DNA from: Parcubacteria group bacterium 21-54-25
Lineage (GTDB): Bacteria > Patescibacteriota > Minisyncoccia > Phycocordibacterales > Phycocordibacteraceae
Length of the DNA stretch: 64,000 nucleotides
Reading direction: 5' to 3'
Assembly: GCA_002255585.1 (NCBI GenBank)
Contig: NCBJ01000004.1
Span: forward strand, 6,415-70,414
Part shown: positions 859-64,000 of the stretch, piece after piece
How positions within the stretch are numbered: the first letter of the stretch is position 1
Layout of the letters: each line of letters begins with the position of its first letter
Made by a program: the position numbers and the translations under genes
The notes under the pieces: model-generated
Database searches by the model: none
What the model was told of the DNA's origin: nothing
Seen by the model: the letters and a program-made list of their open reading frames with translations, nothing else

Positions 859-908
859 TCTCGAGTTTTTATTTCGAGCAAGCAACGGGACGAGGCGAGG
901 CGAGCGCA

Positions 909-1679: not shown

Positions 1680-1726
1680 GTGCCTATAGTGTAGCGTACT
1701 TTTTGGCTACCTTGCCGGTTATAAAC

Positions 1727-1760
1727 ACAACAGCCCGCAAAAGCGGGCTGTTGTAAACAC
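1727..1760 (-). terminator. Perfect 12-bp stem hairpin immediately downstream of the major pilin gene
   Basis: acaacagcccgc-aaaa-gcgggctgttgt lies 21 nt past the pilin stop. No clear U-tract, so it may be a terminator or an mRNA-stabilising 3' hairpin. Confidence 0.4.
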
Positions 1761-1780
1761 TGTTGTGAGAAAGAACTCGA

Positions 1781-2311: not shown

Positions 2312-2429
2312 AAGAATATATAGTAAGGATTATGAACCGGAATAATGCATTATTGGTAAATATTCCGTTACTCTCATTGTACGCCCCCGCCAATGGTGTT
2401 TCCCAGGAGGGTGTGGATAACTGGTACCG

Positions 2430-3641: not shown

Positions 3642-3658
3642 AGAAAGCGAGAGGTCTA

Positions 3659-4723: not shown

Positions 4724-5109
4724 GGTGCGTTGTTTTCAATAATGCGAACCGTTTTTTCAAGCACTTCGGAGGGAATCGCGGACGCTTTTATGATATAGCC
4801 GTCAACGTGAAATTGTTTGGCTTTTTCAATATCGGGGTCCTGACCTTGGTTGGAAAGAACGATAATCTTTGCTCCTTCTGCAAGACCATCCTTACGAATC
4901 GTTTCGAGCACTTCAAAACCGTCAAGCTCTGGCATTATCAGATCGAGAAGCAGGGCGTCAAACGTTGGTTTTTCGCGCAATGCAGCGAGCAGCTCTCGCC
5001 CAGAGGTGAATGATTCGACCGTGTTACCAGCGTTCCTAAACTTCGCTGCGTACATGTTGAGCAGAAAACGATCGTCGTCTAACAGAAATATCGTGTGCGG
5101 GGCCGCCAT
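4720..5109 (-). CDS. Single-domain CheY-like response regulator (receiver only)
   Basis: 129 aa. Receiver-domain signature (LLDDD...DALLLDLIMPELDGFEV...K). Its stop overlaps the pilT start by 4 nt, and it lies between pilT and pilB. Confidence 0.8.
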   Translation of the reverse strand: MAAPHTIFLLDDDRFLLNMYAAKFRNAGNTVESFTSGRELLAALREKPTFDALLLDLIMPELDGFEVLETIRKDGLAEGAKIIVLSNQGQDPDIEKAKQFHVDGYIIKASAIPSEVLEKTVRIIENNAP

Positions 5110-5126
5110 AAGTCGAATAAGTTATT

Positions 5127-6887: not shown

Positions 6888-6917
6888 GATTCATAGCCGA
6901 GGTCTACACGATAAAAT

Positions 6918-7208
6918 TTAAAGAGGCGCGAAAGGATTCGTGCGACCAATCGGTTCTTGCGTGATTGGTGTCGTTATGTCCTGGAGCACCGTAAAACGCG
7001 GATCGGAAAAAAGGGATACGGAGAACGAAATGGACGAGAGCTGACCTGCCGTTTGTTCGAACTGTCCAGCGGTCGAACTTGCCGTACTAGAAGCTGTGAG
7101 CGGCGGCGCCGTAGACCCGGCGCTCTGCATATACACATACCCTCCAACCATCGCAACAACTACGATAAAGGCAATAACGGCAGGTGTGAGTGAAGAGTCT
7201 TTGTTCAT
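6918..7208 (-). CDS. Small membrane-anchored protein in pilus locus (function unknown, possible PilP-like)
   Basis: 96 aa. One N-terminal TM helix followed by a Ser/Thr/Ala-rich tail. Positioned between pilO and pilB, with a 4-nt overlap with the pilO stop. Confidence 0.45.
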   Translation of the reverse strand: MNKDSSLTPAVIAFIVVVAMVGGYVYMQSAGSTAPPLTASSTASSTAGQFEQTAGQLSSISFSVSLFSDPRFTVLQDITTPITQEPIGRTNPFAPL

Positions 7209-7795
7209 ACGTGTGAAGAGTCTCCTAACCAGTATACCTTGAGTGTCATACTATATGTCGCATTTTGCGCAGCATTCTTATTGGCTGAGCTGCCAGACGC
7301 GGTGCCGGCCGTCACTTTTATCGATTGCACGTCAATCAAACGCAAGCTGTGCTCAAGACCAGTAAGGAACGTGCGGAAGCTCTGGTAAGAACCGGTGCCG
7401 GAAAGATCAACCGTGAAAGATTGAACGGACGGCGCCGTAGCGGCGCGACCGTTTTGCGCGGTAGCCGGGGTCTGTGTATTTGCACTAAATTTCGAAAGCG
7501 TGAACCCCGCATTAGCCGCAAGCGTATTGAGATCATAGAGGAAATGCACGCTATGCGCGGTGGCAGGCAGAAATTGGTCGAGGCGCGTGCGGTTTGCGGT
7601 AGAGATCTGGTTAAATTGATTCTGTAGCTGAGACTCCTTGCTTGTGTATTGTTTTGCTGCTATTTGAGCGGCCTCGGTCGCGGTAATTTGCGCGTTAAGT
7701 GGTACAATCGTGTCGCTGTACGTTGGCTGTATGTAAACAAAATACAGACCGACAACAAAGAGTAATTCTATGAGGATGACGAGGCGGTTGTTCAT
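7205..7795 (-). CDS. pilO: Type IV pilus assembly protein PilO-like
   Basis: 196 aa. N-terminal TM helix plus a coiled-coil/periplasmic domain. Gene order pilM-pilN-pilO, with 4-nt overlaps. Confidence 0.65.
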   Translation of the reverse strand: MNNRLVILIELLFVVGLYFVYIQPTYSDTIVPLNAQITATEAAQIAAKQYTSKESQLQNQFNQISTANRTRLDQFLPATAHSVHFLYDLNTLAANAGFTLSKFSANTQTPATAQNGRAATAPSVQSFTVDLSGTGSYQSFRTFLTGLEHSLRLIDVQSIKVTAGTASGSSANKNAAQNATYSMTLKVYWLGDSSHV

Positions 7796-8460
7796 GGTGT
7801 GGTGCTGGTAGCGGTCGCAGCAGTGCTGGTTGCGGCCGCACCGGTCGAAGAGGCCGTGGTCGGATTTGCTACAGCAGCAAAGTTGTCAACGATTGATTGA
7901 TTAACGGTGGCCGATACGGAGAAATTAATTTCGGTACTTTTTTGCGAATTTGGTGTGATGTCAGAGAAAATGACATTTGTGAGGTCGGTATTTTGCATAA
8001 GCGCCTGCGATTCACTCACGAGCGCGTTAAAATCACGTGCCACTCCCTGCGCGTCCAGCGTAGCGGTGTTGTCTTTTTGTGTAGTGAGAGAAAGTGAGGT
8101 AATTTGTATATTCTGAACAGTTGTTTTTTCGAGCAAATCAAAGAGACGTGAGAATGTGCTGTGTTGACTTAGCAGGGTCTGCGCAGTCGCGAGCTGGTTG
8201 CTGACGTATGAAAACTGGGTCACGGTTGTTTGGTCGAGCGCGTGCTGAGTTTCTTGGAGTGTCGTCTGCTTACTCGCAAGCTGAGAGGTGAGGTACTGCC
8301 CATACAAAAACAACCCCCCCGTGACGACGAGCGCAACAACAAAAAATAGCGTTGCCGCAAAAGCAACCGCGCCCGCCAGATCGAATCGCGCGCGTCGCTG
8401 CGGCGTGTGCGTGGGCGGGCGCGGTACGAAAGAGGTTGGTACCCCGGAAGGAATTGGCAT
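7792..8460 (-). CDS. pilN: Type IV pilus assembly protein PilN-like
   Basis: 222 aa. Short cytoplasmic N-terminus, a TM helix and a coiled-coil periplasmic region. Immediately downstream of pilM. Confidence 0.65.
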   Translation of the reverse strand: MPIPSGVPTSFVPRPPTHTPQRRARFDLAGAVAFAATLFFVVALVVTGGLFLYGQYLTSQLASKQTTLQETQHALDQTTVTQFSYVSNQLATAQTLLSQHSTFSRLFDLLEKTTVQNIQITSLSLTTQKDNTATLDAQGVARDFNALVSESQALMQNTDLTNVIFSDITPNSQKSTEINFSVSATVNQSIVDNFAAVANPTTASSTGAAATSTAATATSTTP

Positions 8461-8537
8461 AGAATACTTATAGTATACGCGAGTACCGACGTTGCAGGAC
8501 TAGTTATACACAGGCCGCGCTGGAGGCGCACACGGCG

Positions 8538-9629
8538 CTATGTATGCTCAGTAAGTTTGCGTAACGCAATACCAACCGCAACGGAAAACTCCGGACCGAT
8601 TTCTTTCAACACTGGCCGCATGAATGCGGGTGCCTGTGTTTTTGCAAACGGATCGGCAATGCGTGTTGCGATAGAGAAAAATTTCTCGGCATAGTCGGCA
8701 AGCCCTTTGGTAACACCACCGCCACCGGTAAGGATGATAGCCGATACGGAGCGGTGGTGTTCCGCTTCAAACTGTGCAAGCACGCGCCTAGCTTCGCCAA
8801 AGATGCCCGAGAAAACGCTCTCCATGGACTCGCGTAGCGATCGTTCGGCATCGACAAAACCGGTCTTTTTCTTTGTTTGTTCGGCATGCACGATGTCAGA
8901 ACTCGAAGATACCGCGATAGCTTGCGTAACGTCCTGGCCACCGTGTGGGATAGCGTGTGAGACGCCCACAACGTTTTGCTCGACCACGTACACTTTGGTA
9001 GAACCCGCACCAATATCGATAATCATGACCGGCTTTGCTGGTTCGTCCACTACCGAACGGATGGTGCTGAAAATCTCAATTTCATAAAACGAGGCTACCA
9101 ACCCCGCTGTTGCAATTACGTTTTCAAGTAGTTTAATCTCGTCATTATGCACCGCAACGAGCAGCACATTGACATTTTGTGCGCGTTCACCATTTTCCGA
9201 CGTAGGCTCAGGCAGAATGAACCAGTCGAGCTGTACTTCAGAAACAGGAACAGGGATATATTTTCGTGCTTCTAGTTCTATAACGGTTTTTTGCTCTGCA
9301 GGATTGTCCCGGCGCGGTAATTCAACAAACGCAAGCAGCGAGCGCGACGAGGGAATAGAGACACCGCAATTAGTTGTGGTCACGCTTGCTTCGCGAAGCA
9401 GGTCAGTGAGTGTTTTAGCCATCGTGTCGGCCGGTAAATTGGTCGCCTGGCCAACTTCGGCACCGCCGTACGGACCGAGCGCTAGTTCGCCATACGTCTC
9501 AAGCACAACGACGCCGCGTTCTTTGCGCAGCTGCACTACCTTAAGCGACGATGAGCCGATGTCGATTCCCAACACGCTCGCGCCTTTCTTCTTTCCGAAA
9601 AAGTTCGTCAGAAAACTCATGTGCGCCAT
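8538..9629 (-). CDS. pilM: Type IV pilus assembly protein PilM (actin-like ATPase fold)
   Basis: ORF 8538..9767 contains an internal ATG at 9629 (verified) giving MAHMSFLTNFFGKKKGASVLGIDIGSSSLKVVQL..., a typical PilM N-terminus. The upstream extension overlaps the divergent gene. Confidence 0.8.
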   Translation of the reverse strand: MAHMSFLTNFFGKKKGASVLGIDIGSSSLKVVQLRKERGVVVLETYGELALGPYGGAEVGQATNLPADTMAKTLTDLLREASVTTTNCGVSIPSSRSLLAFVELPRRDNPAEQKTVIELEARKYIPVPVSEVQLDWFILPEPTSENGERAQNVNVLLVAVHNDEIKLLENVIATAGLVASFYEIEIFSTIRSVVDEPAKPVMIIDIGAGSTKVYVVEQNVVGVSHAIPHGGQDVTQAIAVSSSSDIVHAEQTKKKTGFVDAERSLRESMESVFSGIFGEARRVLAQFEAEHHRSVSAIILTGGGGVTKGLADYAEKFFSIATRIADPFAKTQAPAFMRPVLKEIGPEFSVAVGIALRKLTEHT

Positions 9630-9661
9630 TTTACCACGGGGCGATGCGGTACCATACCAAC

Positions 9662-10285
9662 ATGAGGATAGCTGAGTGGTTAGTAGACCTGCTCTTTCCC
9701 CCGCGCGCGAGCGAGCAGCGCATGCGACGCGGTGACACGAATGCGGTGTTGGCACTTCTTTCGCCAACCGTCATCGACACGTGCACGCCGCCAGCAATCG
9801 GCTTACTTCCCTTTCGAGATCCACTGGTGCGCGCACTCATACACGAAGCAAAATACCACGAGCACGAGCGTGCATTTGCGCTCTTGGGCGGCGCGTTGCA
9901 TGAGTACCTTGCTGAATGGACTGCTGACGTTGGCTTTGGCGATGTGTGCGTGGTGCCCGTACCGCTTTCGGCCGCGCGCCAAAAGACGCGCGGCTACAAC
10001 CAGGTGGAGCGCGTGCTGGCATACGCCATGCGCGGTGTGTCAATCACCGTGCATAGCGACTTGCTTGTTCGCCTTCGCGATACCCCCTCACAAACGACAC
10101 TCTCGGGGAGCGCGCGGCAAGAAAATGTGCACGGCGCCTTCGGCGCTGTGCACCCACTCTCACCTGAGAGCACCTACATACTGCTCGATGATGTCCTCAC
10201 CACCGGGGCCACCATGCAGGCAGCTATCGACGCGCTCACCCAGGCCGGTGCGGCACGCATCATCCCGATCGCGCTTGCACATTGA
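9662..10285 (+). CDS. ComF-family phosphoribosyltransferase-domain protein (competence protein ComFC-like)
   Basis: PRTase motif ILLDDVLTTGATM near the C-terminus. Start set to the ATG at 9662 (alternative 9644) to avoid pilM. Divergent from pilM. Confidence 0.65.
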   Translation: MRIAEWLVDLLFPPRASEQRMRRGDTNAVLALLSPTVIDTCTPPAIGLLPFRDPLVRALIHEAKYHEHERAFALLGGALHEYLAEWTADVGFGDVCVVPVPLSAARQKTRGYNQVERVLAYAMRGVSITVHSDLLVRLRDTPSQTTLSGSARQENVHGAFGAVHPLSPESTYILLDDVLTTGATMQAAIDALTQAGAARIIPIALAH

Positions 10286-13939: not shown

Positions 13940-14029
13940 TGGCGGAGACGGTGGGATTCGAACCCACGAGCGCTTTTATACGCTGGCACGTTAGCAGTGT
14001 GCTGGTTTCAACCACTCACCCACGTCTCC
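13940..14029 (-). tRNA. tRNA-Ser (anticodon GCT), type II with long variable arm, CCA encoded
   Basis: Revcomp is GGAGACG-TG-GGT-GAGTGGTTGAA-ACC-A-GCACA-CTGCTAA-CGTGC-[CAGCGTATAAAAGCGCT]-CGTGG-GTTCGAATC-CCAC-CGTCTCC-G-CCA. T-loop GTTCGAATC and G73 are present. Confidence 0.85.
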
Positions 14030-14037
14030 GTACGGCA

Positions 14038-15048
14038 CTATCCTATCGTACTTTTGTATCTTCTCAAATGTTTCGGGTTATGACTCCCGATTACTGAAAA
14101 ATAACGCTTCACATCCGCGATACGATCCAGACGCACGTCATCGTGCGAACCGAGCCGTGGATGAAATCCGTGCGCACACAGTGCATCGCATATAGACCGG
14201 CGCAGTGGTTCCGAAGCGCTCGTGAACGAGAGTTTCTTATATGTGTAAGTTTTGCCTTTAACACGATACCGGTGCGTGAAAACACTTCCGTCAGTATCAA
14301 AGAGTCCGCGTAGACACGCGCTCGAGAATGCCTCGTTTTTCTTTACCCACGGCGGCATATCAAATCGCTGCTTGATTTTATTTCCTATCGGCAGACCTAG
14401 CCCGTGCAGATAATCGACCAAGTGCTTCCTTGAAACGACGATGTTGCACACCGACTTCTTCGGCGTGTGATATGTGCTTGGCGCAATTTCAAAAAGACTC
14501 TCGATGAGCGATTCGACAAAAGAAGTGTATTCGCGATCATCGATGTGGTGAAGCGTGACGGCAACCTGGTATGTGCTCATGCCGCCGTCACCCATCATAA
14601 TGCCGATGAACTCTGCAAGCATGGCGCTCCTTGCTGGTTTGTGGATGATTTTTGGTGCAAGGATCGAATGTTGCTTATGCTTCCCTACCTTGTTCCACCA
14701 CGCGCGCCACCGTGCACTTCGACATGCCTCATCGTGCGGGATGCATCCGTATTTTTGTATCGTTGCGGCAGCGCCCGTCTTACCAGCCCGCGCGGTGTGC
14801 GCATACGCATCGCGAACACGCATACGCGCGGGCACGGAAACACCGGTTTTTGCAGAGAGCGCCTGCACAGCAAAAAGCGGCATTGAAAATTTCTCCCGCC
14901 GCCAGTCTCGAACGGTACGTTCTGAGCACTGGCACAGGTGCGCCATGTCTGCAACCGTCAGTCTATCGCTGATGTGTTTGAAAAACGCTTCTTGTACACC
15001 TTTCTGGAACACGACTCTCTTAAATAAACGATTCCGCCATGCCTCCAT
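14038..15048 (-). CDS. HTH domain fused to a double-motif LAGLIDADG homing-endonuclease-like protein
   Basis: Two LAGLIDADG-type motifs (FIGIMMGDGGMS and LRGLFDTDGSVF) about 100 aa apart. The N-terminal ~100 aa are HTH-like (LTVADMAHLCQCSERTVRDWRREK). Start set to the ATG at 15048 (MEAWRNRL...); the ORF track extends to 15141. Abuts tRNA-Ser with a 9-nt gap. Confidence 0.7.
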   Translation of the reverse strand: MEAWRNRLFKRVVFQKGVQEAFFKHISDRLTVADMAHLCQCSERTVRDWRREKFSMPLFAVQALSAKTGVSVPARMRVRDAYAHTARAGKTGAAATIQKYGCIPHDEACRSARWRAWWNKVGKHKQHSILAPKIIHKPARSAMLAEFIGIMMGDGGMSTYQVAVTLHHIDDREYTSFVESLIESLFEIAPSTYHTPKKSVCNIVVSRKHLVDYLHGLGLPIGNKIKQRFDMPPWVKKNEAFSSACLRGLFDTDGSVFTHRYRVKGKTYTYKKLSFTSASEPLRRSICDALCAHGFHPRLGSHDDVRLDRIADVKRYFSVIGSHNPKHLRRYKSTIG

Positions 15049-15091
15049 TTTATCACGACCACATTCGAATCGCGTGCGCGACCGCTGGCCT

Positions 15092-15313
15092 CTAGAGCCC
15101 AAGTCTCGACGCGAGTTTGAAGCCGACCCAAATGCCGACAAAACCGCCCACCGCAGTGAGTAGCACCGAGCTCATGGAGAAAAACATATTGCCGCCCCAG
15201 AGGCCCGGCGTCATGCTGCCAAGCGTGGAGCCAATGAAAAGTCCAGCCCAAATAAATTTCTTGCGCGTAAACATTAGTAATAAGTATGCCATATAAAACA
15301 CGCAAACCGACAA
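15092..15313 (-). CDS. Small GlsB/YeaQ/YmgE-family-like membrane protein
   Basis: 73 aa. Gly-rich double-TM pattern (IWAGLFIGSTLGSMTPGLWGGNMFFSMSSVLLTAVGGFVGIWVGF) resembling transglycosylase-associated/YeaQ proteins. The larger overlapping ORF 14958..15407 is judged spurious. Confidence 0.45.
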   Translation of the reverse strand: MSVCVFYMAYLLLMFTRKKFIWAGLFIGSTLGSMTPGLWGGNMFFSMSSVLLTAVGGFVGIWVGFKLASRLGL

Positions 15314-22351: not shown

Positions 22352-22383
22352 CACCGATCGATTGGAGTATATGGTCGTTTTTG

Positions 22384-22457
22384 TGGGCGTACCAGGACTC
22401 GAACCTGGAACCGCTGAGGTATAAGCTCAGTGCTCTAACCAATTGAGCTATACGCCC
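22384..22457 (-). tRNA. tRNA-Ile (anticodon UAU), 74 nt, CCA not encoded
   Basis: Revcomp is GGGCGTA-TA-GCTC-AATTGGTTA-GAGC-A-CTGAG-CTTATAC-CTCAG-CGGTT-CCAGG-TTCGAGT-CCTGG-TACGCCC-A. Anticodon loop CUUAUAC gives anticodon UAU. Confidence 0.8.
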
Positions 22458-36061: not shown

Positions 36062-36811
36062 CTATGCGTGTGCCCCATGCGGCTCCATGATTGCAAGCTT
36101 AATGAAAAATAGCGTTAACATGGCAAATACGAGCGCCTGAATGATTCCGATGAACATTTCAAATCCCATGAGTGGTGCCGGCAGTATGTATGGCAGAAAA
36201 TAACCCGCAACGAGTACGAGTATTTCCCCAGCAAAAATATTGCCGAACAAACGAAACGAAAATGACACGAGCCGGCCGAGATTGCTCACGAGCTCGATGA
36301 GACCAACAACAAATCCCAGTGGCGAGGCAAAATTGATAAACTTCTTTCCGTACTTCAACACCCCAAAAGTTAGAATGCCCGTCACTTCTATCGTTAAGAA
36401 CGAAATAATTGCAAGTGCCAGCGTGACATTGAGATCGGTAGTCGGCGTACGCAACAGTGGCACGAAGACCGTTCCCTGCATAAGTCCGATAGAGCCCACG
36501 CCGGGGAAAAACTCCAGCTCATTAGCAATCAGCACAAAAAGAAAAATAGTTGCGAGAAGCGGGAAAAATCGTCGGGCCAGTTCCTCACTCTCAAACAAAT
36601 CAGCAGTGTACGCAAATGATCGTTCGAACACCCACTCGACACCTGCCTGCAATTTTCCCGGACGAAGCGCGAGGCGGCGGCGAAAGAAATACGCGCCCGC
36701 AATGAGAAGCGCCATAAGCACCCAGGTCATCAAAAGACTGTTGGTGATGGGCAGCCCAAAGAAGGACCCGAGCTGTTCAGCCTTGAGAATGACGTGAATA
36801 CCTGAATTCAT
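36062..36811 (-). CDS. atpB: Fo ATP synthase subunit a
   Basis: 249 aa from the ATG at 36811 (verified). Conserved LFGNIFAGEILV region with the essential Arg. Confidence 0.9.
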   Translation of the reverse strand: MNSGIHVILKAEQLGSFFGLPITNSLLMTWVLMALLIAGAYFFRRRLALRPGKLQAGVEWVFERSFAYTADLFESEELARRFFPLLATIFLFVLIANELEFFPGVGSIGLMQGTVFVPLLRTPTTDLNVTLALAIISFLTIEVTGILTFGVLKYGKKFINFASPLGFVVGLIELVSNLGRLVSFSFRLFGNIFAGEILVLVAGYFLPYILPAPLMGFEMFIGIIQALVFAMLTLFFIKLAIMEPHGAHA

Positions 36812-36870
36812 ACTACGTAGAAAATGCACGCGTATACGCCCCTCCACGCGCTACCGAAAAAAAACGGCGC

Positions 36871-36909
36871 GAAAGTACCCTCTCGCGTGCCTGATCATGA
36901 TACCACACT
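36871..36909 (-). terminator. Rho-independent terminator (minus strand) between the small TM protein gene and atpB
   Basis: Minus strand reads GGCACGCGA-GAGGGTACTT-TCGCGCC followed by a U8 tract. It separates the 36952..37692 gene pair from the atp operon. Confidence 0.6.
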
Positions 36910-36951
36910 CGAAGTTGTGTGGTGAAGTCTCTCTCGGTCTGGCACGTGATG

Positions 36952-37221
36952 CTACGGCGCCGTAATCGGAGTTACTGGTGCCAAACCAAACGTAGCAGTA
37001 GCAATATTCAAAATGCCATAGGCACCAAAAATGATAACGAGACCAATGATTCCCCACAAAATCGCGCTTTGCGCCGTTGCGCGCTCGGCATCATCACCGG
37101 CATTTTTTATGAGCATGAAAACTCCCCAAAGAAACACCACAAATGCGCCGCCCGCGAGCAATGTAATGAGCGGGTTCACAATCTGCGTCACGACACCTGT
37201 CAACAACACACTGAAGCTCAT
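36952..37221 (-). CDS. Small two-helix membrane protein, paralog 1 (TrbC/VirB2-pilin-like architecture)
   Basis: 89 aa. helix-LWG-loop(D/E-rich)-helix: IVNPLITLLAGGAFVVFLWGVFMLIKNAGDDAERATAQSAILWGIIGLVIIFGAYGI. Clear paralog of the next gene. ATG at 37221 verified. Confidence 0.5.
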   Translation of the reverse strand: MSFSVLLTGVVTQIVNPLITLLAGGAFVVFLWGVFMLIKNAGDDAERATAQSAILWGIIGLVIIFGAYGILNIATATFGLAPVTPITAP

Positions 37222-37320
37222 AGCAGCAGTATATCAGACCATGGCACCACACCGCGGCCTCAGGGACCGCGGTGTGCAATGTAAGAACGAATGGAAGCGC
37301 GTGGCCTGCTTCACGCCGCG

Positions 37321-37692
37321 TTATCCTCCGATGTTCACCCCAGCGCTCGGCAGCTGCCCAGGACCTGAATTTTGAGTGCTAAAAGAACCGGTGAAAATAT
37401 GCACAATACCCCAAATGGTGAGCATCACTACCAAGCCACCAATGCCATACATGATGACGTTTTTCCCTTCGCCTTTTGCTTCCTCATCATTAGCACCAAG
37501 AACGAATGCTTTGAACAAACCCCAAAGCAGCACGATGAACGCAACAGCAAAAAGCACCGGTACGAGAATACCGTTAATAGTGTTGATAATAAATTGTCCG
37601 GCACCTGATATGTTGTTAATGGACGTCTGCGCAAACGCGAGAACCGGAGTGACGAGCGCAAGCATCGTAATCGCAGCGATATTTTTTTTCAT
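37321..37692 (-). CDS. Small Sec-signal two-helix protein, paralog 2 (TrbC/VirB2-pilin-like architecture)
   Basis: 124 aa from the ATG at 37692. Signal peptide MKKNIAAITMLALVTPVLAFA|QTS, then INTINGILVPVLFAVAFIVLLWGLFKAFVLGANDEEAKGEGKNVIMYGIGGLVVMLTIWGIV, which aligns residue-by-residue in pattern with paralog 1. Confidence 0.5.
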   Translation of the reverse strand: MKKNIAAITMLALVTPVLAFAQTSINNISGAGQFIINTINGILVPVLFAVAFIVLLWGLFKAFVLGANDEEAKGEGKNVIMYGIGGLVVMLTIWGIVHIFTGSFSTQNSGPGQLPSAGVNIGG

Positions 37693-37847
37693 AGATGTGG
37701 GAGATTGATAATATCCCGAAGCAGGCCGAGATATGTTTATTGTACGTCTCGACGGCCCAAGGTCAATGAACCGCAGTGCTCTTTGTGGATAAGTAGACAC
37801 GCAATATAGGCAATGCAGCAGCGCCGCCATAGTGCTATAGTCGCGCT

Positions 37848-38396
37848 ATGACATCTTCTATAGTACAGGCCGATACGGCCCCTATTCTGCGCCAGAAAGC
37901 TACTGCGGTACCAGAAACGCTTTTTGGCACACCGGAGCTCGCGCGTATTATTGCCGCCATGACTAGCGCACTTGATGCCGAACTTGATGGCGTTGCGCTT
38001 GCCGCACCGCAAGTTGGGTTGCCACATCGACTGTTTGTCGTGCGCTATGACCGAATACTTCCACGCGAAGAAGGCGCGCCGGTACCGGCGGCAAATATCG
38101 GCGTGTATATCAACCCTGAGATTATAAAAACGGCGCGGCGCACCGAAGTCGTGGACGAGGGGTGCTTGTCCGTACGCGGTATCTACGGAAAAACAACACG
38201 CCACAGCCGCGCAACCGTACGGGCACGCGATGCGGCAGGCCGCATGTTTGTGCGCGGTGCCGGTGGCCTCCTTGCGCAAGTGTTCCAACATGAGATCGAT
38301 CATTTGGAGGGCATCCTGTTTATCGACCATGCAATTGATCTCTACACCTTGCGCGACAAAACTGCAGACAACCATGACTCCGAATCCCCATCCTAA
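37848..38396 (+). CDS. def: Peptide deformylase
   Basis: 182 aa. Motifs GVALAAPQVG, EGCLS and HEIDHLEG. TATAGT lies 7 nt upstream of the ATG, so the transcript may be leaderless. Confidence 0.9.
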   Translation: MTSSIVQADTAPILRQKATAVPETLFGTPELARIIAAMTSALDAELDGVALAAPQVGLPHRLFVVRYDRILPREEGAPVPAANIGVYINPEIIKTARRTEVVDEGCLSVRGIYGKTTRHSRATVRARDAAGRMFVRGAGGLLAQVFQHEIDHLEGILFIDHAIDLYTLRDKTADNHDSESPS

Positions 38397-53775: not shown

Positions 53776-56661
53776 CTATTTTGATTGCGTGAACTTAGAT
53801 ATATCAATAGGTGGAACAGGGTTCCCCGAGGCATCAAGCATTGGTCTAAGTGATTGTAGCGGCGGACCATCTTTCGCGGTCTGTATGAATGAATAATTAG
53901 CTACAGTCATGCGCCCATTACTCATTTGATAGGGAACTAACGCCTGATCTTTGGGATGTTTGAGTAAATGCTCATACGCGACGAGTCGTTGCGCATCGAT
54001 ATCGCCACCATATACGACGATACGATGTGGAGCGTTCGAGTACACACGCGTCGGATCAAGCCCGCGTTGTGACGCAGTGTGGTTTACTCGTTCTAAGAAA
54101 TGCGCGAGTGTCTCGTTGCTCTCCGGACCCACACCGGATTGTGCCACAACATTTACCAGTTCTTTGTGAAGTTCGGGCGAAACATGTGGAGAATGATAGA
54201 GCACCGCAAACGCGGGAGTGTGCGCATAGTTCCCAAGCTCGCTCGGATCCAGCAGTTTAGCAATTTCGTGGTGGATTAATGCGGGACTTGGCGATACCTG
54301 AGCTGCCGCCTCTGTCACATGGTGGGTCGGTGCAACCCAAGAACCGGTATGCACCGGATTCCCCGACGAATCGCGCACAATTTCCCCTTCTTGGTTATAC
54401 AAGACACCCGGCTGGTGCTGTGGTGCATTTGCGGTATGGTGACCGGCGGTTTCTGCTGCATGTTGCGGCGCGGATGCCGCGGCTTCTGCGTGCGCTGTGG
54501 CACCAGGAGCAACTTGTTCTGTCGCATGCCCCGCACCGCTGGGCGCGTGATCGGTGTGGTACGATCCGCTAAATTGACTGATTTTCTCTATGTGGCCGCT
54601 CGCATCACTTGCGAGAACGTGGTTGTTGAAAACCAAATGTCCGCTCGTCGGGTCATACTGCAGGGTGTCTCCGGCATGCATTACACTGCTTTGGCCGAGC
54701 ATGCGAGCGGCTGACGGTGCTTTTGCGAACCCATACTCTTCTGAGAGATCGTGCAGGCGTGTGTGTAAAATATACTGCACTTCCGGCGGCGCCTTGCTCG
54801 GATCCGGATAGAGTTCACGCAGCTGGTGCTTCAGATCTCCAAAGAGCGCGTCTGCGCCCTCGTCCGACCTATCTATGTGCGCAACGGCCGCACGGGCATC
54901 GAGGTGGTGTTCTCCAGCGGTGTGCGGAACGGTGGCTTCCTGCGCAGGTCGAATGGGGGCTTCGTGCACAGCCGGTGCGTGGGCTGCGTGCTCAACGGGT
55001 GGCAGCAAACTGCTGTTTGAATGCACGTGTTCAACAGGTGCAGGAGCGGCAAGTGTTACGGTGTGTTCGGCAGGCATAGTCGCGACACCTTCAGGAGCGT
55101 GTGGGATCGGCGCGGCAGAATGAGTGGCCTGCTCGATTCCTGTAGTGGCACTAGCCGCGTGATCCAACACTGAGGCAGCAGACATGATTTCATGGGCAGC
55201 AGCGCCAGAGACACCAGCCGCAAACAGCGCCGCGGACGCCCGCTCCCAGAAACGGGCACCGCGTTCGATCGCCTCTTTCGATCCTTTTTTCCATGCACGT
55301 GTTTGCGCGTCGAGCTCTTCTCTACTTGAAATATCTTGCGTACGCGCCTTCGCCAACGCTGCTTCGCGACGCTTGCCAACCGTTGCTCGGTATCCTTTCC
55401 CGCCAGCGGCACCTGCCGCCGCGCCAAGCGGTGTGGAGGCGACGGTCGCACCGACAAGACCGCGGCCAGCACGCAACCCAAACGCCGAAAGCGCAGCAAT
55501 TGGCGCGGCAATACCCGCCACCGCACCCACCACAGTCCCTGCGGCGGTACCAAGAAAGGCAAACGCGACGACACGTCTTGCGCGTGCCACACGCTTGCCG
55601 TAGCGCGCCTCCTGCGCTTCGGTTTTTTGCTGCATCCAACGCACCGCTTTCCGAAAAGTAAGGTGGCTGGCTTCATCGAGTCCGCGCTCTTTGGCAGCGA
55701 TACGCGCACGTTCTCCTCGTCCGATAGTGTGGTGCGAGACCATACTGTTATAACGCGCGTGAATGGCCCGTCGATCGTCCGCGTCATGTATGACATTACT
55801 TTTTCTAAACCGAGCGCGGAGTGCGGCGCGCTCTATTTCAAACTGCTCTTTTTCCTCCTGCGAAATTTCTTTACTTTCAATTTTGTCGGTGAGCGCGTGA
55901 ATGTCTTCAATAAGTTCCATGCGATCAACGGACGATGTGTTGCGCGAGATGAGCTTTCGTGTCTCCCGTTGAACTTTCGTATCCGCATCATCTCCGTGCC
56001 GAGCCCTTTCCTGCTCCAGCGCTCCTTCTTCAGTAGCTAGTATCGCATTGTTCCGTGTGAAAAAATCCTGGTGTTTTTTCGCTAAGGCAAGATCGTCTTC
56101 AGGAGCGGACACAAAACGTTTAGCGGCGCGTTGCGCGACCGATTCATTTATTGCCTCTCGTAAAGCTAGCTGTGCGTCCTGATATTCCTCGTGCAGCTGC
56201 GTCACCCGTTCTCGTGCGAGCCGCTCTGGGCTGTTGCGTCCGGCAAGTCGACTTAAAAACCCGTGTTCTTTGTGCAGGGCGCGGTACGCGCCCAGGTATG
56301 CCGCTTCAGCTTTGAGCATTTTTCTACGTGCGTCTGCAACACCAGCGCGCTCGGCTAATGTATCAGCGATATTTGTCTGCGGCGCAACCCCCAGAGCGCG
56401 AGCGGGCGGACGATTAAGCTCGCTGGAATCAGCGACTCGCCCGCTTGGTATATCAGATCTGAGCAGCCCAGTTTTTCTGAGCTTTTCCTCCGCAACAGCA
56501 AGCTCCGCTTCGGAAGGGTTCTTAAACCCTGGGACTGATATGGAATCCGTGAGTTTCGTGTCGTGGGGTGCGACATCAGACAATTCTTTTACCGTCGCAC
56601 GCAGCTGCTCTCTCTTATCGTGCGGGGTTTCTCCCGTATTTCTTGTGGGACCTTCGCTCAT
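53776..56661 (-). CDS. Giant (961 aa) hypothetical protein: N-terminal coiled-coil, two central Gly/Ala-rich TM helices, C-terminal His/Ala-rich extracytoplasmic domain
   Basis: ATG at 56661 verified. About 390 aa of charged coiled-coil. TM pair near residues 400-450 (VVAFAFLGTAAGTVVGAVAGIAAPIAALSAFGL...). The C-terminal half is rich in His. No known domain recognised. Confidence 0.55.
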   Translation of the reverse strand: MSEGPTRNTGETPHDKREQLRATVKELSDVAPHDTKLTDSISVPGFKNPSEAELAVAEEKLRKTGLLRSDIPSGRVADSSELNRPPARALGVAPQTNIADTLAERAGVADARRKMLKAEAAYLGAYRALHKEHGFLSRLAGRNSPERLARERVTQLHEEYQDAQLALREAINESVAQRAAKRFVSAPEDDLALAKKHQDFFTRNNAILATEEGALEQERARHGDDADTKVQRETRKLISRNTSSVDRMELIEDIHALTDKIESKEISQEEKEQFEIERAALRARFRKSNVIHDADDRRAIHARYNSMVSHHTIGRGERARIAAKERGLDEASHLTFRKAVRWMQQKTEAQEARYGKRVARARRVVAFAFLGTAAGTVVGAVAGIAAPIAALSAFGLRAGRGLVGATVASTPLGAAAGAAGGKGYRATVGKRREAALAKARTQDISSREELDAQTRAWKKGSKEAIERGARFWERASAALFAAGVSGAAAHEIMSAASVLDHAASATTGIEQATHSAAPIPHAPEGVATMPAEHTVTLAAPAPVEHVHSNSSLLPPVEHAAHAPAVHEAPIRPAQEATVPHTAGEHHLDARAAVAHIDRSDEGADALFGDLKHQLRELYPDPSKAPPEVQYILHTRLHDLSEEYGFAKAPSAARMLGQSSVMHAGDTLQYDPTSGHLVFNNHVLASDASGHIEKISQFSGSYHTDHAPSGAGHATEQVAPGATAHAEAAASAPQHAAETAGHHTANAPQHQPGVLYNQEGEIVRDSSGNPVHTGSWVAPTHHVTEAAAQVSPSPALIHHEIAKLLDPSELGNYAHTPAFAVLYHSPHVSPELHKELVNVVAQSGVGPESNETLAHFLERVNHTASQRGLDPTRVYSNAPHRIVVYGGDIDAQRLVAYEHLLKHPKDQALVPYQMSNGRMTVANYSFIQTAKDGPPLQSLRPMLDASGNPVPPIDISKFTQSK

Positions 56662-56718
56662 ATATTATGTATTATCAACGACAAGCATGCGAACGCCAAA
56701 CCCTTCTGTGCACAGGGG

Positions 56719-59499
56719 CTACCCGCCGGTAAGATAGCGTGCATGAATAGTTTCTTCCACCATCGTGCGGTCGCGCCCATAGGTGAGGTAGGAAAGCTGG
56801 CGCAAATCATCCACTTGCGCCAAGTGTCTTTGAGGCGGCGGTAGTGTCTCTATATTAAACGGTTTTTGTGGTACGCCGCGTGCAAGAATCTTCACATACG
56901 CGCGATAGTTCTCGATACTAATGAAATCTGACGTCTCGAACGTCGGTGCAAACTGCTTGGCGAAGAACTCACCATCTTCTTCTCCCACACGGAATACTGC
57001 CATGGAGCCCACGTTGCCGAAAATCGCATCACGAATCTTCTCATCCACCTGATCGAGGTACTGGTGCGCGATATTGAGCGAAAGCTTGTACTTGCGCGCC
57101 TCGGAAAGAATACCAGGAATTGAATCGGTGGTGATGTTCTGAAACTCATCGATGTAGAGGTAAAACGGCGGGAAATCAGTACCTGGTGAGTCGGCGCGCG
57201 AAAGTGCGGCCATGAAAATCTTACCGACCAGGACGAGACCGATGAGGTTCGCGTTTCGCTCGCCCAAGCGGCCCTTGGAGAGATTCACGAGCAATATCTT
57301 TTTCTGGTCCATGATCTGCCGGAAATCGAACGATGACTCCTGCTGTCCGACGATGGGACGCATGAAATCGTTTGCGGTAAAGTCATCAAATTTGTTCGTG
57401 ATGTAGGGCACGATGTTCTCGAGCGATGCTTCCCCGCCGGCTTGCGTGGCAATCTCTGTCCAAAACTGGTTCACCACCGGATTTCTACTACGCGAGAGTT
57501 TCATATTGCGGAACGCAGTGTTCGAAAGTACGCGAGGAATGTCGAGCATGGTCGATCCACTTCCCGGGTCTTCCATGACAAGCTGCGTCGCGTTTCTAAA
57601 GTACTGCTCAAACGCCGGTCCCATACTCTCGGGCACATCGCCATACAGGCGACGAAAGATCGCGAGGAGTTCGTTCACGATAAAGGTTTTCTGCTCGGGA
57701 CGCTTCGGGTCGTATTCAAGCAAATTCAAGCCAAACGGTCGCTCGATGTATGCGGGATCAAAATAAATAACGTCTTCGTAACGCTCGGGCGGAATCATTG
57801 CGAGAATGTCGAGAATGTCATTACCGTGCGGATCGATGAAACAGGCACCGGCGCCCGCTTTTATGTCTTGCGCGATGAGTGTTTTCAAGAAAACTGTTTT
57901 ACCCGTGCCAGTCTGACCGATAACATAGAGGTGTCGGAGCCGGTCTTCCTCCGCAATACGTACCTTAGTTTCTTTTCCGCGAAACAAATTGGTCCCGAGC
58001 ACGGTTCCCGATTGCGGCAGATCGAGCGGCGCAGGTGCGGCGGTGAAGCGTGTTTGTTTCAAATGTGGCGAGGATTCGATACCTTCTGGCGGGAAGTGAT
58101 ACAGCGTGGTGAGCTCACGGAGCGAAAGTGGCATGGCGGCGGCACTCGGCGTGCGGAATGAAAATTCGTCCATGAACGCACGTGCGCGGCTTCCTGTCGC
58201 GCGCGTAAATATAAGCCGGTTTCCAAACGTGTTGTCAAACTGGTTAAACGCCGCCTCGAGGTCCGAGAGCACTTGGTCGGTACGTGCGGCCTGCGGCGAA
58301 GAAACCAGCAGCCGCAGCGTAATTCCCACGACCGGCGCAGAAATCTTTTTCTCCACCTGTTCGATGTCGTTTTTATTTGCTTCGGCCTGTCGCATTTCTG
58401 CCTCACGCGCCTTCTCTTCATCTTTTGGCTTGTTCCTAAAGAAAAGTTTCCCGAAATCATGCGCCACTTCGCCGAGCGTTGTCTCGGGAGTCTTAAATGC
58501 CTCTTCGCGCTTGACGCCCTTCCTGAGCGCCGAGAGTATTTTGCGATAGTGCGCCGTATAACGCTGTCCCTGTGGCTCAAAAATTATCTGCAGCGCAGCC
58601 CCCTCGCCCTCGGTCTCAATTTTCGCAAATGCATTGAGAATGGTGTTCAGTGGGTCGTAATCAAAATCTGTATAGTCTTTGAGCGGCAGCATCGCTGGCG
58701 CAGCGAGACGCGCGGTCGAAACAAGTGATGCGCCGTTCTCGACAAAAATGTTGTAATCGTTTGGCTGCGGTTCTATGTGCGCGTCTGGAAAGACCGCGAG
58801 AAGCTGTTTTTCAAAAAGGTCGCGGCGGCTGTTCGGAATCGCTACGTAAAAGAAAAGATGTGCGCTCTCAACGGGTACCGCAAGCTCAAGCGCTACGTAC
58901 GGTGGTTCTTTTTGGGCGACTGCCCCCACAGCGAGCATGCCTGAGTAAAATTGCTCCATTGCAGAGACGAGTTCTTTGAGCGTTTTACCGCGCGTTTCCG
59001 GCGCATCGCCCTTGTGCTCTGGCAGTGTTACTTCATACAGTGTCATATGAAGTGCCCTGAAGCGTGGGGCGTTCTCAACCATGCCGCGTATCGGTAATCC
59101 CGCCGCTACGTAGCGCACAAGAAAGCGATGGAAATCGTCAGTGATGTGTGGATTATTCAGTTTATCGAGCACGGCAAGCGAGTTCTTGATGCCGCGCGTT
59201 TCCATGATGCTGTAGAGCTCCGTCATCGTGTCGTCGTTATTGTCGGGATCCAGTCCCAACGAAAGTTCATGCACCTCAGACGCTGCCATCCGATAGGGCG
59301 GCGCAAGCACGGCTTCCTGCGGTGCCTGTCGGTGCGTCTGTATCGCCTCATGCGCCGCCGCTTCACGCTCTTGGCGAGCGGCCTCCGGCGCGAGCGGTAC
59401 CTGACGCAACGTTATGAGCTCTTGTTCTTTAGCGGCTACCTGTGCACGCAAGTGCGCGAGTTCCTCCTCTGGTGTCGAGAGCTGTGGCGTTCCTTCCAT
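56719..59499 (-). CDS. FtsK/HerA-superfamily ATPase with TraD/VirD4 (T4SS coupling protein)-like motor motifs and a large soluble N-terminal domain
   Basis: 926 aa. Walker A HLYVIGQTGTGKTVFLKTL followed about 20 aa later by FIDPHGNDI. Walker B/arginine region YLYIDEFQNITTDSIPGILSEARKYKLSLNIAHQYLDQV matches the TraD/VirD4 pattern DEF...AEARK...Q..sQL. No N-terminal TM segments. Confidence 0.6.
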   Translation of the reverse strand: MEGTPQLSTPEEELAHLRAQVAAKEQELITLRQVPLAPEAARQEREAAAHEAIQTHRQAPQEAVLAPPYRMAASEVHELSLGLDPDNNDDTMTELYSIMETRGIKNSLAVLDKLNNPHITDDFHRFLVRYVAAGLPIRGMVENAPRFRALHMTLYEVTLPEHKGDAPETRGKTLKELVSAMEQFYSGMLAVGAVAQKEPPYVALELAVPVESAHLFFYVAIPNSRRDLFEKQLLAVFPDAHIEPQPNDYNIFVENGASLVSTARLAAPAMLPLKDYTDFDYDPLNTILNAFAKIETEGEGAALQIIFEPQGQRYTAHYRKILSALRKGVKREEAFKTPETTLGEVAHDFGKLFFRNKPKDEEKAREAEMRQAEANKNDIEQVEKKISAPVVGITLRLLVSSPQAARTDQVLSDLEAAFNQFDNTFGNRLIFTRATGSRARAFMDEFSFRTPSAAAMPLSLRELTTLYHFPPEGIESSPHLKQTRFTAAPAPLDLPQSGTVLGTNLFRGKETKVRIAEEDRLRHLYVIGQTGTGKTVFLKTLIAQDIKAGAGACFIDPHGNDILDILAMIPPERYEDVIYFDPAYIERPFGLNLLEYDPKRPEQKTFIVNELLAIFRRLYGDVPESMGPAFEQYFRNATQLVMEDPGSGSTMLDIPRVLSNTAFRNMKLSRSRNPVVNQFWTEIATQAGGEASLENIVPYITNKFDDFTANDFMRPIVGQQESSFDFRQIMDQKKILLVNLSKGRLGERNANLIGLVLVGKIFMAALSRADSPGTDFPPFYLYIDEFQNITTDSIPGILSEARKYKLSLNIAHQYLDQVDEKIRDAIFGNVGSMAVFRVGEEDGEFFAKQFAPTFETSDFISIENYRAYVKILARGVPQKPFNIETLPPPQRHLAQVDDLRQLSYLTYGRDRTMVEETIHARYLTGG

Positions 59500-62111: not shown

Positions 62112-62521
62112 GGGGGTGACCGGCTTTGACGGTCTGTACCTTGAGAATGCGCGACGCGGTGCACGCTCACTTACCACCTAAAACTAGTGAGCACCTAAAC
62201 GTGCCAAGAAATCTCTTGCACGCGCAGTGTCGCCATACTTCGGTATGAACGACTTTGCGTTCGCGGCAGTGACGGCTCGAGCGTAAGCTCGCCTCGCTCT
62301 CGCGACGTCTCCCTACCTTGCGTTTGCAGGGGGTAGTCGAGGCGGAATGTACTGCATACTCGACGTGCGCGCGCCCACGCGTACTGTCTAAATTTTGGGA
62401 TCCGACAGGAGTGATTTTGTTTCAGTTCCTCGCACCCTGTCCTAGCTTCAACTGAAACTACGCGTCGTAGAAGCACCTCATGGTCCGGATTCGGACGGGA
62501 GTTCGATTCTCCCCACCTCCA
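62112..62521 (+). ncRNA. ssrA: tmRNA (ssrA)
   Basis: 5' end GGGGGUGACCGGCUUUGACGG. 3' end GGACGGGAGUUCGAUUCUCCCCACCUCCA, i.e. T-arm plus acceptor with the G3-U70 Ala identity pair. CCA not encoded. A candidate tag reading frame ends at TAA 62284-62286 (...NDFAFAAVTARA); the resume codon is uncertain. Confidence 0.8.
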
Positions 62522-64000
62522 CATCTTGTGAATTCTTGGTAGCAAACTGCTCAAAAAGGCCGATAAATGGCGACTTTAGCGCGGTTTCAAATCCAAACTT
62601 TGGATGGAATGCCAATCGTTCCGCAAAGAGTAGTTTTAGAACTACTCTTTTTGCGTTTATGTCTCGCTTTTCCCAGATAACTAGCGGGTTTTCTAGGAAG
62701 TTGAGTACGACCTCTAGTGCGGTTTCAAAACTCACGGATGAGACGCCCAGCCCTTTCATCCGCTCTTGCAAGAGATCGCCTTCGCTTCGGTATTTCGCGA
62801 TCTGTTCCTCGTATGCGCTGATCACCCTTTCGTCTACCGCCTTCACGACACGTCCAGCGAGAACATCCACCTGACGCCGCGTTTCCTTCAGCTTCGTCTC
62901 CAAGGATCTTTGTTGCTGCTCAAGAGAACCCACCTTGTGTTCCCACAATTCCAGAACTACGGCTTTAGCGAGACGAATGGCCCCGGGCTTCGGGTAGATG
63001 GACTGGAGGAGTTTTACAAATTCTGCATCGACAAAGTCTCCGCTCACGCTTTTATTGAATCGAACGCAGGATGGGCTCTTGCAGCGATAGAAACGGTACA
63101 TCTTTGATCTGCCTCTCGACCAGCTTGCGGTGAGTGCGCCTTGGCAGAATGGGCACAGGAGGAATCCGCGAAGCGCGAAGTCGAGCGAATCACTTTTCCG
63201 CACAGCCACCCTGCACTTCCCATCCAGTTTTCCCTGCACTTTTTGGAATGTCTCGAGAGAAATGATCGCTTCATGTTGCCCTTTTCTTCTCGAAACTTCC
63301 CACTCCTCACGCTCGACGTATCCCGCGTACACAACTCGTCGAAGAAGACGTCTAACGCCTTCTTGGTAAATCGGTCCGTTGCTGTAGTCTGTAGCACGCA
63401 AGAATTTAACCACGTCCGCCTGCGACAAAAACTTGCCAGAGGCAAATCCTTCAAACACTTCTCTAATGAGGCTGGCCTGCGGTTCATGGGGTTGAAGTAT
63501 CTTCCCATGCGCCGGATCCTTGACCTGCTTGTATCCGGGCGGCGGATAGTGCGGCCAGTACCCTTTCTCTAGGCGAGCTTTCATTTTCTGAATTACCTGG
63601 CGTCTGTTGTTCTTGCGATGGTATTGATTTTGCAACGCCACCATTCCCTCGAACATCTCTCCTTCCGGCGAATCGTCGAAGTTGAAATTCAAACAGAGTG
63701 GTTTAATTCCTCTAGTCTCGAAGGCCTGTCTTAATTTGAAATGAAAAATAACGTCCCTAGCAAACCGGCTCAAATCGTCAAAAATAACCACGTAGTTTCT
63801 ATGGGGATGATTATCTGCATGAGCAAGTAGCCTTTGCATAGCAGGCCTCAGCATAAAATCGCCGCCGCCGGTGAAACTATCTCTAAAGACTTCCTCTACC
63901 TCGTAGCCGTTGGATCTAGCGAACTCTCGGCATCGGTGTTCTTGGCTGTCGAGTCCGTGCCCTTTGACCTGACCCCCAAATTTCAGACCACTCTCTAGAC
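62478..64000 (-). CDS. Large serine recombinase (resolvase/integrase), N-terminus beyond window end
   Basis: The reading frame stays open to position 64000. Upstream in-frame translation gives ...GQVKGHGLDSQEHRCREFARSNGYEVEEVFRDSFTGGGDFMLRPAMQRLL...VVIFDDLSRFARD (resolvase catalytic domain). It is followed by the recombinase domain, a zinc ribbon (CPFCQG...CKSPSC) and a coiled-coil. Its 3' end overlaps the tmRNA 3' end by 44 nt. Confidence 0.8.
   Translation of the reverse strand, partial: LESGLKFGGQVKGHGLDSQEHRCREFARSNGYEVEEVFRDSFTGGGDFMLRPAMQRLLAHADNHPHRNYVVIFDDLSRFARDVIFHFKLRQAFETRGIKPLCLNFNFDDSPEGEMFEGMVALQNQYHRKNNRRQVIQKMKARLEKGYWPHYPPPGYKQVKDPAHGKILQPHEPQASLIREVFEGFASGKFLSQADVVKFLRATDYSNGPIYQEGVRRLLRRVVYAGYVEREEWEVSRRKGQHEAIISLETFQKVQGKLDGKCRVAVRKSDSLDFALRGFLLCPFCQGALTASWSRGRSKMYRFYRCKSPSCVRFNKSVSGDFVDAEFVKLLQSIYPKPGAIRLAKAVVLELWEHKVGSLEQQQRSLETKLKETRRQVDVLAGRVVKAVDERVISAYEEQIAKYRSEGDLLQERMKGLGVSSVSFETALEVVLNFLENPLVIWEKRDINAKRVVLKLLFAERLAFHPKFGFETALKSPFIGLFEQFATKNSQDVEVGRIELPSESGP

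Follow-up and report, generated by a model that had tools for sequence, protein, structure and literature searches.

Two small genes for hydrophobic proteins that lie directly upstream of an ATP synthase operon raise the question of whether their products serve that enzyme or belong to a different machine. We have analyzed such a pair, the open reading frames ORF-A and ORF-B, located on the minus strand of a 64 kb stretch of DNA, here called the window, from the metagenome-assembled genome (MAG; GCA_027311325.1, 'Parcubacteria group bacterium 21-54-25') of a Kaiserbacteria-like member of the Parcubacteria, one of the ultrasmall Patescibacteria. On that strand ORF-A is followed after 99 nt by ORF-B, and ORF-B after 140 nt by atpB; def and fmt are found on the opposite strand, upstream of ORF-A. 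We conclude that ORF-A and ORF-B are likely to be a conserved pair of VirB2-like type IV secretion system (T4SS) pilin paralogs of family PF18895, a kind of gene that is widespread and arrayed in Patescibacteria.

Two paralogous hairpin proteins

ORF-A (37321..37692, minus strand; 123 aa plus stop codon) encodes a VirB2-like pre-pilin with a predicted Sec-type signal peptide followed by a two-helix hairpin. The signal peptide comprises residues 1-21 (codons 37630-37692, minus strand), that is, the residues MKK, a 17-residue hydrophobic core and the junction AFA/QTS, and the same n/h/c layout with an A-x-A motif is present in 25 of 25 A orthologs. Cleavage is inferred from this layout. ORF-B (36952..37221, minus strand; 89 aa) encodes a signal-less VirB2-like paralog that is also predicted to form a two-helix hairpin; it is the longest ORF possible in its frame, and its ATG is the first start codon past the preceding stop. 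The B orthologs are very uniform, with 86-94 aa in most of 88 loci, and none of the 88 carries a signal peptide. Their N-terminus, M-x-x-L-N-x-F-L-x-K-V-V-x-Q-I-x-N-P, is the counterpart of the first residues of mature A and leaves no room for one.

According to the hydropathy and charge map, each protein has two long hydrophobic helices, and all the charges of the mature part are confined to the loop that connects them. The AlphaFold model of ORF-B is a helical hairpin (helices 3-39 and 44-77) with a mean predicted local distance difference test score (pLDDT) of 90; in that of ORF-A, helices 28-65 and 70-101 follow the signal helix, with a pLDDT of 74-92 over residues 31-100. The two proteins share 34% identity over 65 residues (BLASTP, E=3e-11), and a profile-profile comparison of their ortholog sets gives a probability of 98.9% (E=2.3e-17). 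Judged by these comparisons, ORF-A and ORF-B are genuine paralogs. A preliminary description of this DNA had already placed two paralogous ORFs at this minus-strand location, the second with a Sec signal ending in AFA/QTS, and each with a pair of hydrophobic helices around a short charged loop; the coordinates, the paralogy, the signal layout and, by both the hydropathy map and the structural models, the hairpins all agree with our results.

Assignment to family PF18895

Both proteins score above the gathering cut-off of the model PF18895 T4SS_pilin (26.6 bits, whole-protein hidden Markov model (HMM) score), ORF-A with 33.6 bits and ORF-B with 33.7 bits, and the same model matches all of the 61 orthologs scanned (25 of 25 for A and 36 of 36 for B). 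As two adjacent same-strand genes of PF18895, ORF-A and ORF-B form a pilin array as defined in PMC12102498, where an array has 2-11 pilin genes that are tandem or have one gene between them. Two further models point in the same direction from below their thresholds. PF04956 TrbC/VirB2 (gathering score 27.9 bits) is the second and third most frequent match among the orthologs, in 6 of 25 for A and 12 of 36 for B, respectively; the best E-values over the two ortholog sets are 9.6e-4 and 0.011. NF045849 (equivalog cut-off 40 bits) is the nearest NCBIfam model; it aligns over essentially all of its 80 positions with ORF-B (E=1.2e-9) and with ORF-A (E=3.1e-8), and it matches 36 of 36 B orthologs with a best E of 4.7e-12. 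Since the curated thresholds of these two models are missed, neither ORF is filed under PF04956 or NF045849.

The preliminary description had preferred a pilin of the TrbC/VirB2 type, and this preference is supported by the PF18895 scores above threshold and by the lack of any AtpI/AtpZ match; of the pilin models that it had named, PF18895 is passed and PF04956 TrbC is reached below threshold only.

Several results weigh against the pilin assignment. On PF04956 itself, ORF-A scores 9.5 bits (E=1.5) and ORF-B has no match, and on NF045849 both remain under the cut-off, ORF-B closely (37.7 bits) and ORF-A with 33.2 bits. ORF-B lacks a signal peptide, which is atypical of VirB2/TrbC pilins. When both AlphaFold models were compared with the PDB using Foldseek, the best matches had E>0.5 and were generic hairpins, including chemoreceptor hairpins and ATP synthase subunit c. 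VirB4, VirB6, VirB3 and TrsD were not recognised in the window or up to 10 kb from the homologous arrays, and the literature consulted reports no visualised pilus made of a PF18895 protein.

The structural searches gave no match at E<=0.001, and an archaeal conjugative pilin appeared among the Foldseek matches at E about 7; on a two-helix hairpin such as the one modelled here, fold searches cannot discriminate. A profile search against the sequences in the PDB yielded nothing beyond a spurious match to FliL (E=0.055), and tblastn of ORF-A against 72,556 plasmids gave no match at E<=1. We also considered that ORF-B could be VirB3, a small signal-less protein encoded after virB2, and rejected this candidate: ORF-B is a clear PF18895 paralog of ORF-A and has no VirB3 match.

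Relatives and gene order

A relative of A is encoded in 398 species-representative genomes; at the cluster level there are 635 homologs of B, and a B-type profile matches 12,056 representatives of 50%-identity clusters. Gene order was compared over 89 loci. Twelve of them, namely the contig of the window itself and those of its closest relatives (A identity 57-100%), show the order described above, in which fmt and def point away from A, B and atpB. Nearly all of the others (some 70 among the best 80 genome loci) carry a different operon that consists of a methyltransferase gene, a gene for a solute-binding protein (SBP) of family SBP_bac_1, three to five PF18895 paralogs, and then A and B. 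These array-type loci (L007, L008, L013-L089 and L090; for example, L090:9468-13614) represent most Kaiserbacteria/Paceibacterota genomes. The last two genes of the operon are A, with about 125 aa, and B, with about 90 aa, and the other paralogs vary in length. The SBP_bac_1 protein is an orphan that is 67-79% identical across species, and its stop codon overlaps the start codon of the first pilin gene. Within 10 kb of the array-type loci, neither an ABC permease or ATPase nor a T4SS gene, VirB4 included, was found.

The synteny over the 89 loci therefore identifies A-B as a conserved two-gene unit and its adjacency to atpB as specific to one sublineage, an accident rather than a functional link. 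Among the best 120 of 950 matches to the SBP ortholog, no methyltransferase/SBP/pilin operon could be attributed to the MAG of the window, and the family HMM detects no third pilin paralog among all 910 window ORFs of at least 40 aa.

The matches of the B-type profile include many proteins that we call poly-pilins, in which a single polypeptide carries 2-8 tandem PF18895 hairpins joined by short linkers, such as P0286 (820 aa), P0270 (555 aa) and P0266 (336 aa). These may be processed into monomers, or they may act as concatenated subunits.

A predicted promoter that travels with the pair

A sigma-70-type promoter is predicted upstream of ORF-A (TTGACC, 16 nt, TACAAT; 37739..37766, minus strand). 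At 37784..37792 on the same strand, 17 nt upstream of the -35 hexamer, there is a DnaA-box-like element, TTATCCACA, a sequence identical to the textbook DnaA-box consensus. The whole module recurs upstream of the A orthologs (window and L003-L089) in the form [C/T]TATCC[A/C]CA, 17 nt, TTGAC[C/T], 16 nt, TACAAT. Promoter statistics were obtained on 83 non-duplicate loci. In 75 of these, TATCC[A/C]CA precedes the A ortholog, and in 58 its position is -78 to -80 relative to the ATG; the full geometry (box, 17-18 nt, TTGAC[C/T], 16 nt, TAnnnT) is found in 64; the spacing of 17 nt between the box and the -35 hexamer is kept in about 90% of the Kaiserbacteria-type species. The conservation of the box is close to that of the -35 and -10 hexamers, and the spacers are unconserved. 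Outside these sites, only 66 further copies of the 8-mer were counted on the two strands of 1.2 Mb of loci. From these regularities of sequence, ORF-A appears to have a dedicated and strongly conserved promoter.

We considered whether the TATCCACA box acts as an element of promoters in general and rejected this, given that it is missing from the start of the methyltransferase/SBP operon and rare elsewhere. In the array-type loci a second box-like sequence, GTTATCCACTTA, is present inside the short 5' untranslated region of A. In the window, a perfect TTATCCACA is also found at 2411-2419, some 100 nt ahead of the type IV pilin gene at 1781-2311 and 30 nt before a TACAAT.

Because the predicted promoter travels with the A-B pair, promoter, A and B could relocate together as a module. 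A bolder proposal can be built on this, in which A-B would be an autonomous mobile expression module under predicted DnaA-box-like control, with B as an obligatory partner of A and a pilus that binds a ligand; taken as a whole, we consider it quite improbable. If it were true, control by a DnaA-box-like element would couple the supply of pilus subunits to the replication initiator and the cell cycle of an epibiotic cell, B would be the signal-less partner of a Sec-processed A, for example in a heteromeric or primed filament, and the operon headed by an orphan solute-binding protein would hint at a ligand-binding pilus.

Signals after ORF-A and after ORF-B

A GC-rich hairpin without a U-run lies between the two genes (37248..37276, minus strand; stem of 12 bp, -24.1 kcal/mol, z=-2.8). 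Of 9 loci with the def-A-B-atpB order, 8 have a strong hairpin here, and it is absent from the array-type loci. The distance between A and B follows the same division: in most array-type loci it is -1 to 8 nt, which amounts to translational coupling, and in the loci of the def/atpB type it is 49-166 nt. Downstream of the hairpin, 6 nt before the ATG of ORF-B, there is an extended -10-like box, TGATATACT (37228..37236, minus strand), and in the window, L003 and L005 the sequence TGnTATACT stands exactly 6 nt before the ATG of B, after the hairpin. By its position, this box suggests that the mRNA of ORF-B is probably leaderless. The same geometry is found at atpB, where, in at least 16 relatives (metagenome loci within L092-L117), TGnTAnAAT begins 15-19 nt ahead of the ATG. 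Extended -10 boxes (TGnTAnnnT) end 6-8 nt before the start codons of both pilin B and atpB, a pattern that suggests that leaderless mRNAs are common in the lineage of the window.

After ORF-B, an intrinsic-terminator-like hairpin with a stem of 8 bp is followed by U8 (36857..36887, minus strand; -14.4 kcal/mol, z=-2.8). It precedes atpB (36062..36811, minus strand), which encodes the a subunit of the F-ATPase, is the first gene of atpBEFHAGDC and lies outside the pilin unit; the ATG consistent with its orthologs is at 36811. The seven relatives of the same gene order also have a terminator-like hairpin with a U-run here, and the U8-type hairpin was not found where atpB has no co-directional upstream neighbour (L092-L094); this fits a plain terminator of the pilin unit. 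Between the stop codon of ORF-B and the hairpin there is also a promoter-like site (TTCACC, 18 nt, TG-n-TATCAT; 36897..36926, minus strand). The extended -10-like block just upstream of the hairpin (TGnTAnnnT; TGTGGTATCAT in the window) is conserved in 7 of 7 relatives of the same order, and if it were the atp promoter, the hairpin would belong to the atp leader. The hairpin may then be the pilin terminator, though it may also lie in the atp leader. The minus-strand terminator that the preliminary description saw as separating the pair from atpB is real as a hairpin plus U8, and its insulating role is putative. An Rfam scan of 36700-37900 returned nothing meaningful.

The T4SS link and a possible mechanism

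Given that no T4SS genes are recognised nearby, the link of the pair to a T4SS comes from the family assignment and from the literature. In Patescibacteria, VirB4 has been reported in 2,417 of 3,035 assemblies (80%). VirB2-like pilins are known from 1,948 assemblies, only 1,135 of which have them close to virB4, and 441 arrays with between 2 and 11 genes were counted; pilin genes lie apart from virB4 in about 40% of the assemblies (PMC12102498). In Southlakia epibionticum, a pilin array and the T4SS whose gene cluster contains it are both essential for epibiotic growth (PMC10633639; reviewed in PMC12857230).

The window itself encodes a coupling-protein-like ATPase of 926 aa (56719-59499, minus strand), with weak matches to TraD/VirD4, DUF87 and TraG-D_C in its C-terminal half and a long unassigned N-terminal half. 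It lies about 19 kb from the pair, with unrelated housekeeping genes in between. Of 3,035 genomes of Patescibacteria, 2,918 encode VirD4-like proteins, which lie near virB4 in no more than 148 cases (PMC12102498). Because such genes are near-universal and mostly away from virB4, an ATPase 19 kb off gives no specific support to the pilin assignment; the TraD/VirD4-like ATPase that had been pointed out beforehand does exist, and its suggested connection with a pilin role is not supported in view of this distribution. In the region 53776-59499 (minus strand), the ATPase gene is followed by an ORF of 961 aa that has no Pfam or NCBIfam match, and shows a central Ala/Gly-rich hydrophobic stretch and a low-complexity stretch rich in His, Ala and Pro.

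By analogy with established VirB2/TrbC pilins and with what has been reported for Patescibacteria, the following mechanism can be proposed. A would be a pre-pilin that is exported by Sec and cleaved after AFA, and the mature protein would be stored in the membrane as a hairpin with both termini outside and the charged loop in the cytoplasm; B would insert into the membrane as the same hairpin without a cleavable signal. A VirB4/VirB6 machine of the Patescibacteria type (monoderm, MPF-FATA-related), encoded elsewhere, would draw A and B from this membrane pool, and the two proteins would build, or else prime, a pilus of conjugative type that would serve in contact with a host cell. In the sublineage of the window, the module formed by the promoter, A and B would have moved from the end of a multi-pilin operon to the def/atpB intergenic region, after which A and B would be expressed separately, with the hairpin after A and with an extended -10 box for B alone.

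Alternative explanations

The main rival is that the PF18895 proteins do not polymerise but serve inside the membrane, for example as structural or regulatory subunits of a complex for transport or secretion, in which the orphan solute-binding protein may also take part. It would account for the lack of T4SS genes near the pair or near the homologous arrays, and for the translational coupling of the array to the conserved orphan SBP_bac_1 (67-79% identity) in about 70 of the best 80 genomes; besides, the family owes its name to remote similarity, with no demonstrated pilus (PMC12102498, PMC12857230). Against it stand the consistency of the conjugative-pilin signal, which is above threshold for PF18895 and recurs below threshold for PF04956 and NF045849, and the location of the Southlakia pilin array inside an essential T4SS cluster (PMC10633639). 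We consider a non-filament role unlikely, and a VirB2-like pilin pair remains the preferred explanation.

That the two proteins could be AtpI/AtpZ-type accessory proteins of the F1Fo ATP synthase is suggested by their place, immediately upstream of atpB on the same strand, which is the usual position of atpI; in addition, the window has no other atpI or atpZ gene, and the hairpin fold loosely resembles ATP synthase subunit c, without significance. However, PF03899 and PF09527 give no match at E<=10 for ORF-A or ORF-B and none for the orthologs scanned, as expected for pilins. This negative result is meaningful because genuine AtpZ proteins are detected in more distant relatives: the ORFs upstream of atpB in four more distant relatives of the candidate phyla radiation (CPR) score 31-56 bits on PF09527, which serves as a positive control. 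A custom HMM built from these four AtpZ proteins detects the ORF ahead of atpB at 22 of 73 loci, gives at most 5.2 bits on the A family, and recognises neither A, B nor any ORF of the window. Gene order argues in the same sense, since in about 70 of the best 80 species genomes the pair resides in a pilin operon far from the atp genes. The conservation of the neighbourhood had been proposed beforehand as informative, and in most relatives the pair is not adjacent to atpB; linkage to atpB occurs in only 12 of 89 loci, in one sublineage, and ORF-A has its own predicted promoter and ORF-B is followed by a terminator-like hairpin. The AtpI/AtpZ explanation is already largely refuted, and we regard it as most improbable. 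In the metagenome loci L121-L170, from more distant CPR relatives, genuine AtpZ (PF09527) overlaps or abuts atpB; the lineage of the window has lost AtpZ or never had it.

Type IV pilins consist of a single N-terminal helix and a globular domain. That the pair might be components of the type IV pilus (T4P) system of the window is hardly credible: a full T4P cluster is present at 187-9767 and the same TTATCCACA box stands upstream of its pilin gene 1781-2311, but the pair is about 27 kb away from that cluster, its two-helix hairpin is unlike the build of a type IV pilin, and A and B have neither a class III (prepilin peptidase) signal nor a match to any T4P family or to PF07963 N_methyl, a model that does match the true T4P pilins of the window.

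Other contents of the window

The T4P cluster, on the minus strand, is complete and encodes two N_methyl pilins, the prepilin peptidase PilD, PilC, PilT, a response regulator, PilB and PilO/N/M. The window also contains housekeeping genes, the atpBEFHAGDC operon, uvrABC, a two-component system, ftsH, a tmRNA gene and a serine recombinase gene. The large serine recombinase gene (62478-63854, opposite strand) shares its 3' end with part of the tmRNA gene (62112-62522, plus strand), and this overlap may mark the edge of an ssrA-integrated element that extends past the window. A tRNA-Ile with anticodon UAU (tat), unusual for bacteria, is encoded at 22383-22457 on the minus strand, and at 13940-15141, also on the minus strand, an ORF of 367 aa with a LAGLIDADG homing-endonuclease domain directly adjoins a tRNA-Ser gene.

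Comparison with known systems

The gene class of the pair has been described before (PMC12102498), which makes the pair less novel than initially assumed: VirB2-like pilins and tandem arrays are known across Patescibacteria, and for the phylum the pair is ordinary. It is an instance of a feature recognised only lately and still open in mechanism, that is, VirB2-like pilins in monoderms whose T4SS is essential for epibiotic growth. What is new here is the unit formed by A, with a predicted signal peptide, and B, without one, its own promoter with a DnaA-box-like element, and its usual place in the operon. These anatomical details leave the classification unchanged and offer handles on the expression and assembly of the pilin, and a role as ATP synthase accessory is removed as a false lead. 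The A-B module, the DnaA-box-like promoter element and the operon of orphan SBP and pilins are modest new leads.

With AtpZ and AtpI (PF09527 ATPase_gene1 and PF03899 ATP-synt_I) the pair shares a gene for a small hydrophobic protein directly upstream of atpB. In contrast to the pair, the AtpZ proteins of the CPR relatives have a G-R-x-L-D motif and are encoded by single genes that overlap or abut atpB, and no sequence relationship was found between them and the pair.

The TrbC/VirB2 pilins (VirB2 of the Agrobacterium T-pilin, TrbC of RP4 and TraA of F) resemble ORF-A in their organisation, a signal peptide, predicted in the case of ORF-A, ahead of a two-helix hairpin with a short charged loop. 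The pair differs from them in that the HMM similarity is weak and sub-threshold, although recurrent, B is signal-less, the host is a monoderm, and virB3 and virB4 are absent from the neighbourhood; neither A nor B gives an indication of cyclisation or C-terminal processing.

The likeness is closest to the VirB2-like arrays of Patescibacteria, which are also of family PF18895, consist of small, tandem and divergent paralogs, are chromosomal, and have at least one member with a signal peptide; examples are the essential six-gene array that lies in the T4SS cluster SEML1_0006-0019 of Southlakia epibionticum ML1, and the 'Sec-secreted array' of Nanosynbacter lyticus TM7x. The identity of 34% between A and B compares with a mean of 25% and a maximum of 54% reported within Patescibacteria arrays (PMC12102498). 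Unlike the described Saccharibacteria arrays, the pair has only two genes, lies between def and the atp operon, has a B that is universally signal-less, and has no T4SS gene nearby; its host is of the Parcubacteria/Kaiserbacteria type and not a Saccharibacterium, and is known here from sequence alone. No relaxase gene was recognised in the window.

Outside Pfam, the best curated match is NF045849, the Mbov_0395/MMCAP2_0565 pilin-like conjugal transfer protein of Mycoplasma integrative and conjugative elements (ICEs). Unlike the members of that family, A and B are not on an ICE, have no conjugation genes nearby, and score below the cut-off. The host of NF045849, too, is a monoderm, in keeping with the MPF-FATA ancestry that has been proposed for the T4SS of Patescibacteria. 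To our knowledge, the published view is that the T4SS classes of monoderms lack VirB2 homologs, and the closeness of the pair to this Mycoplasma family is notable, although below the cut-off.

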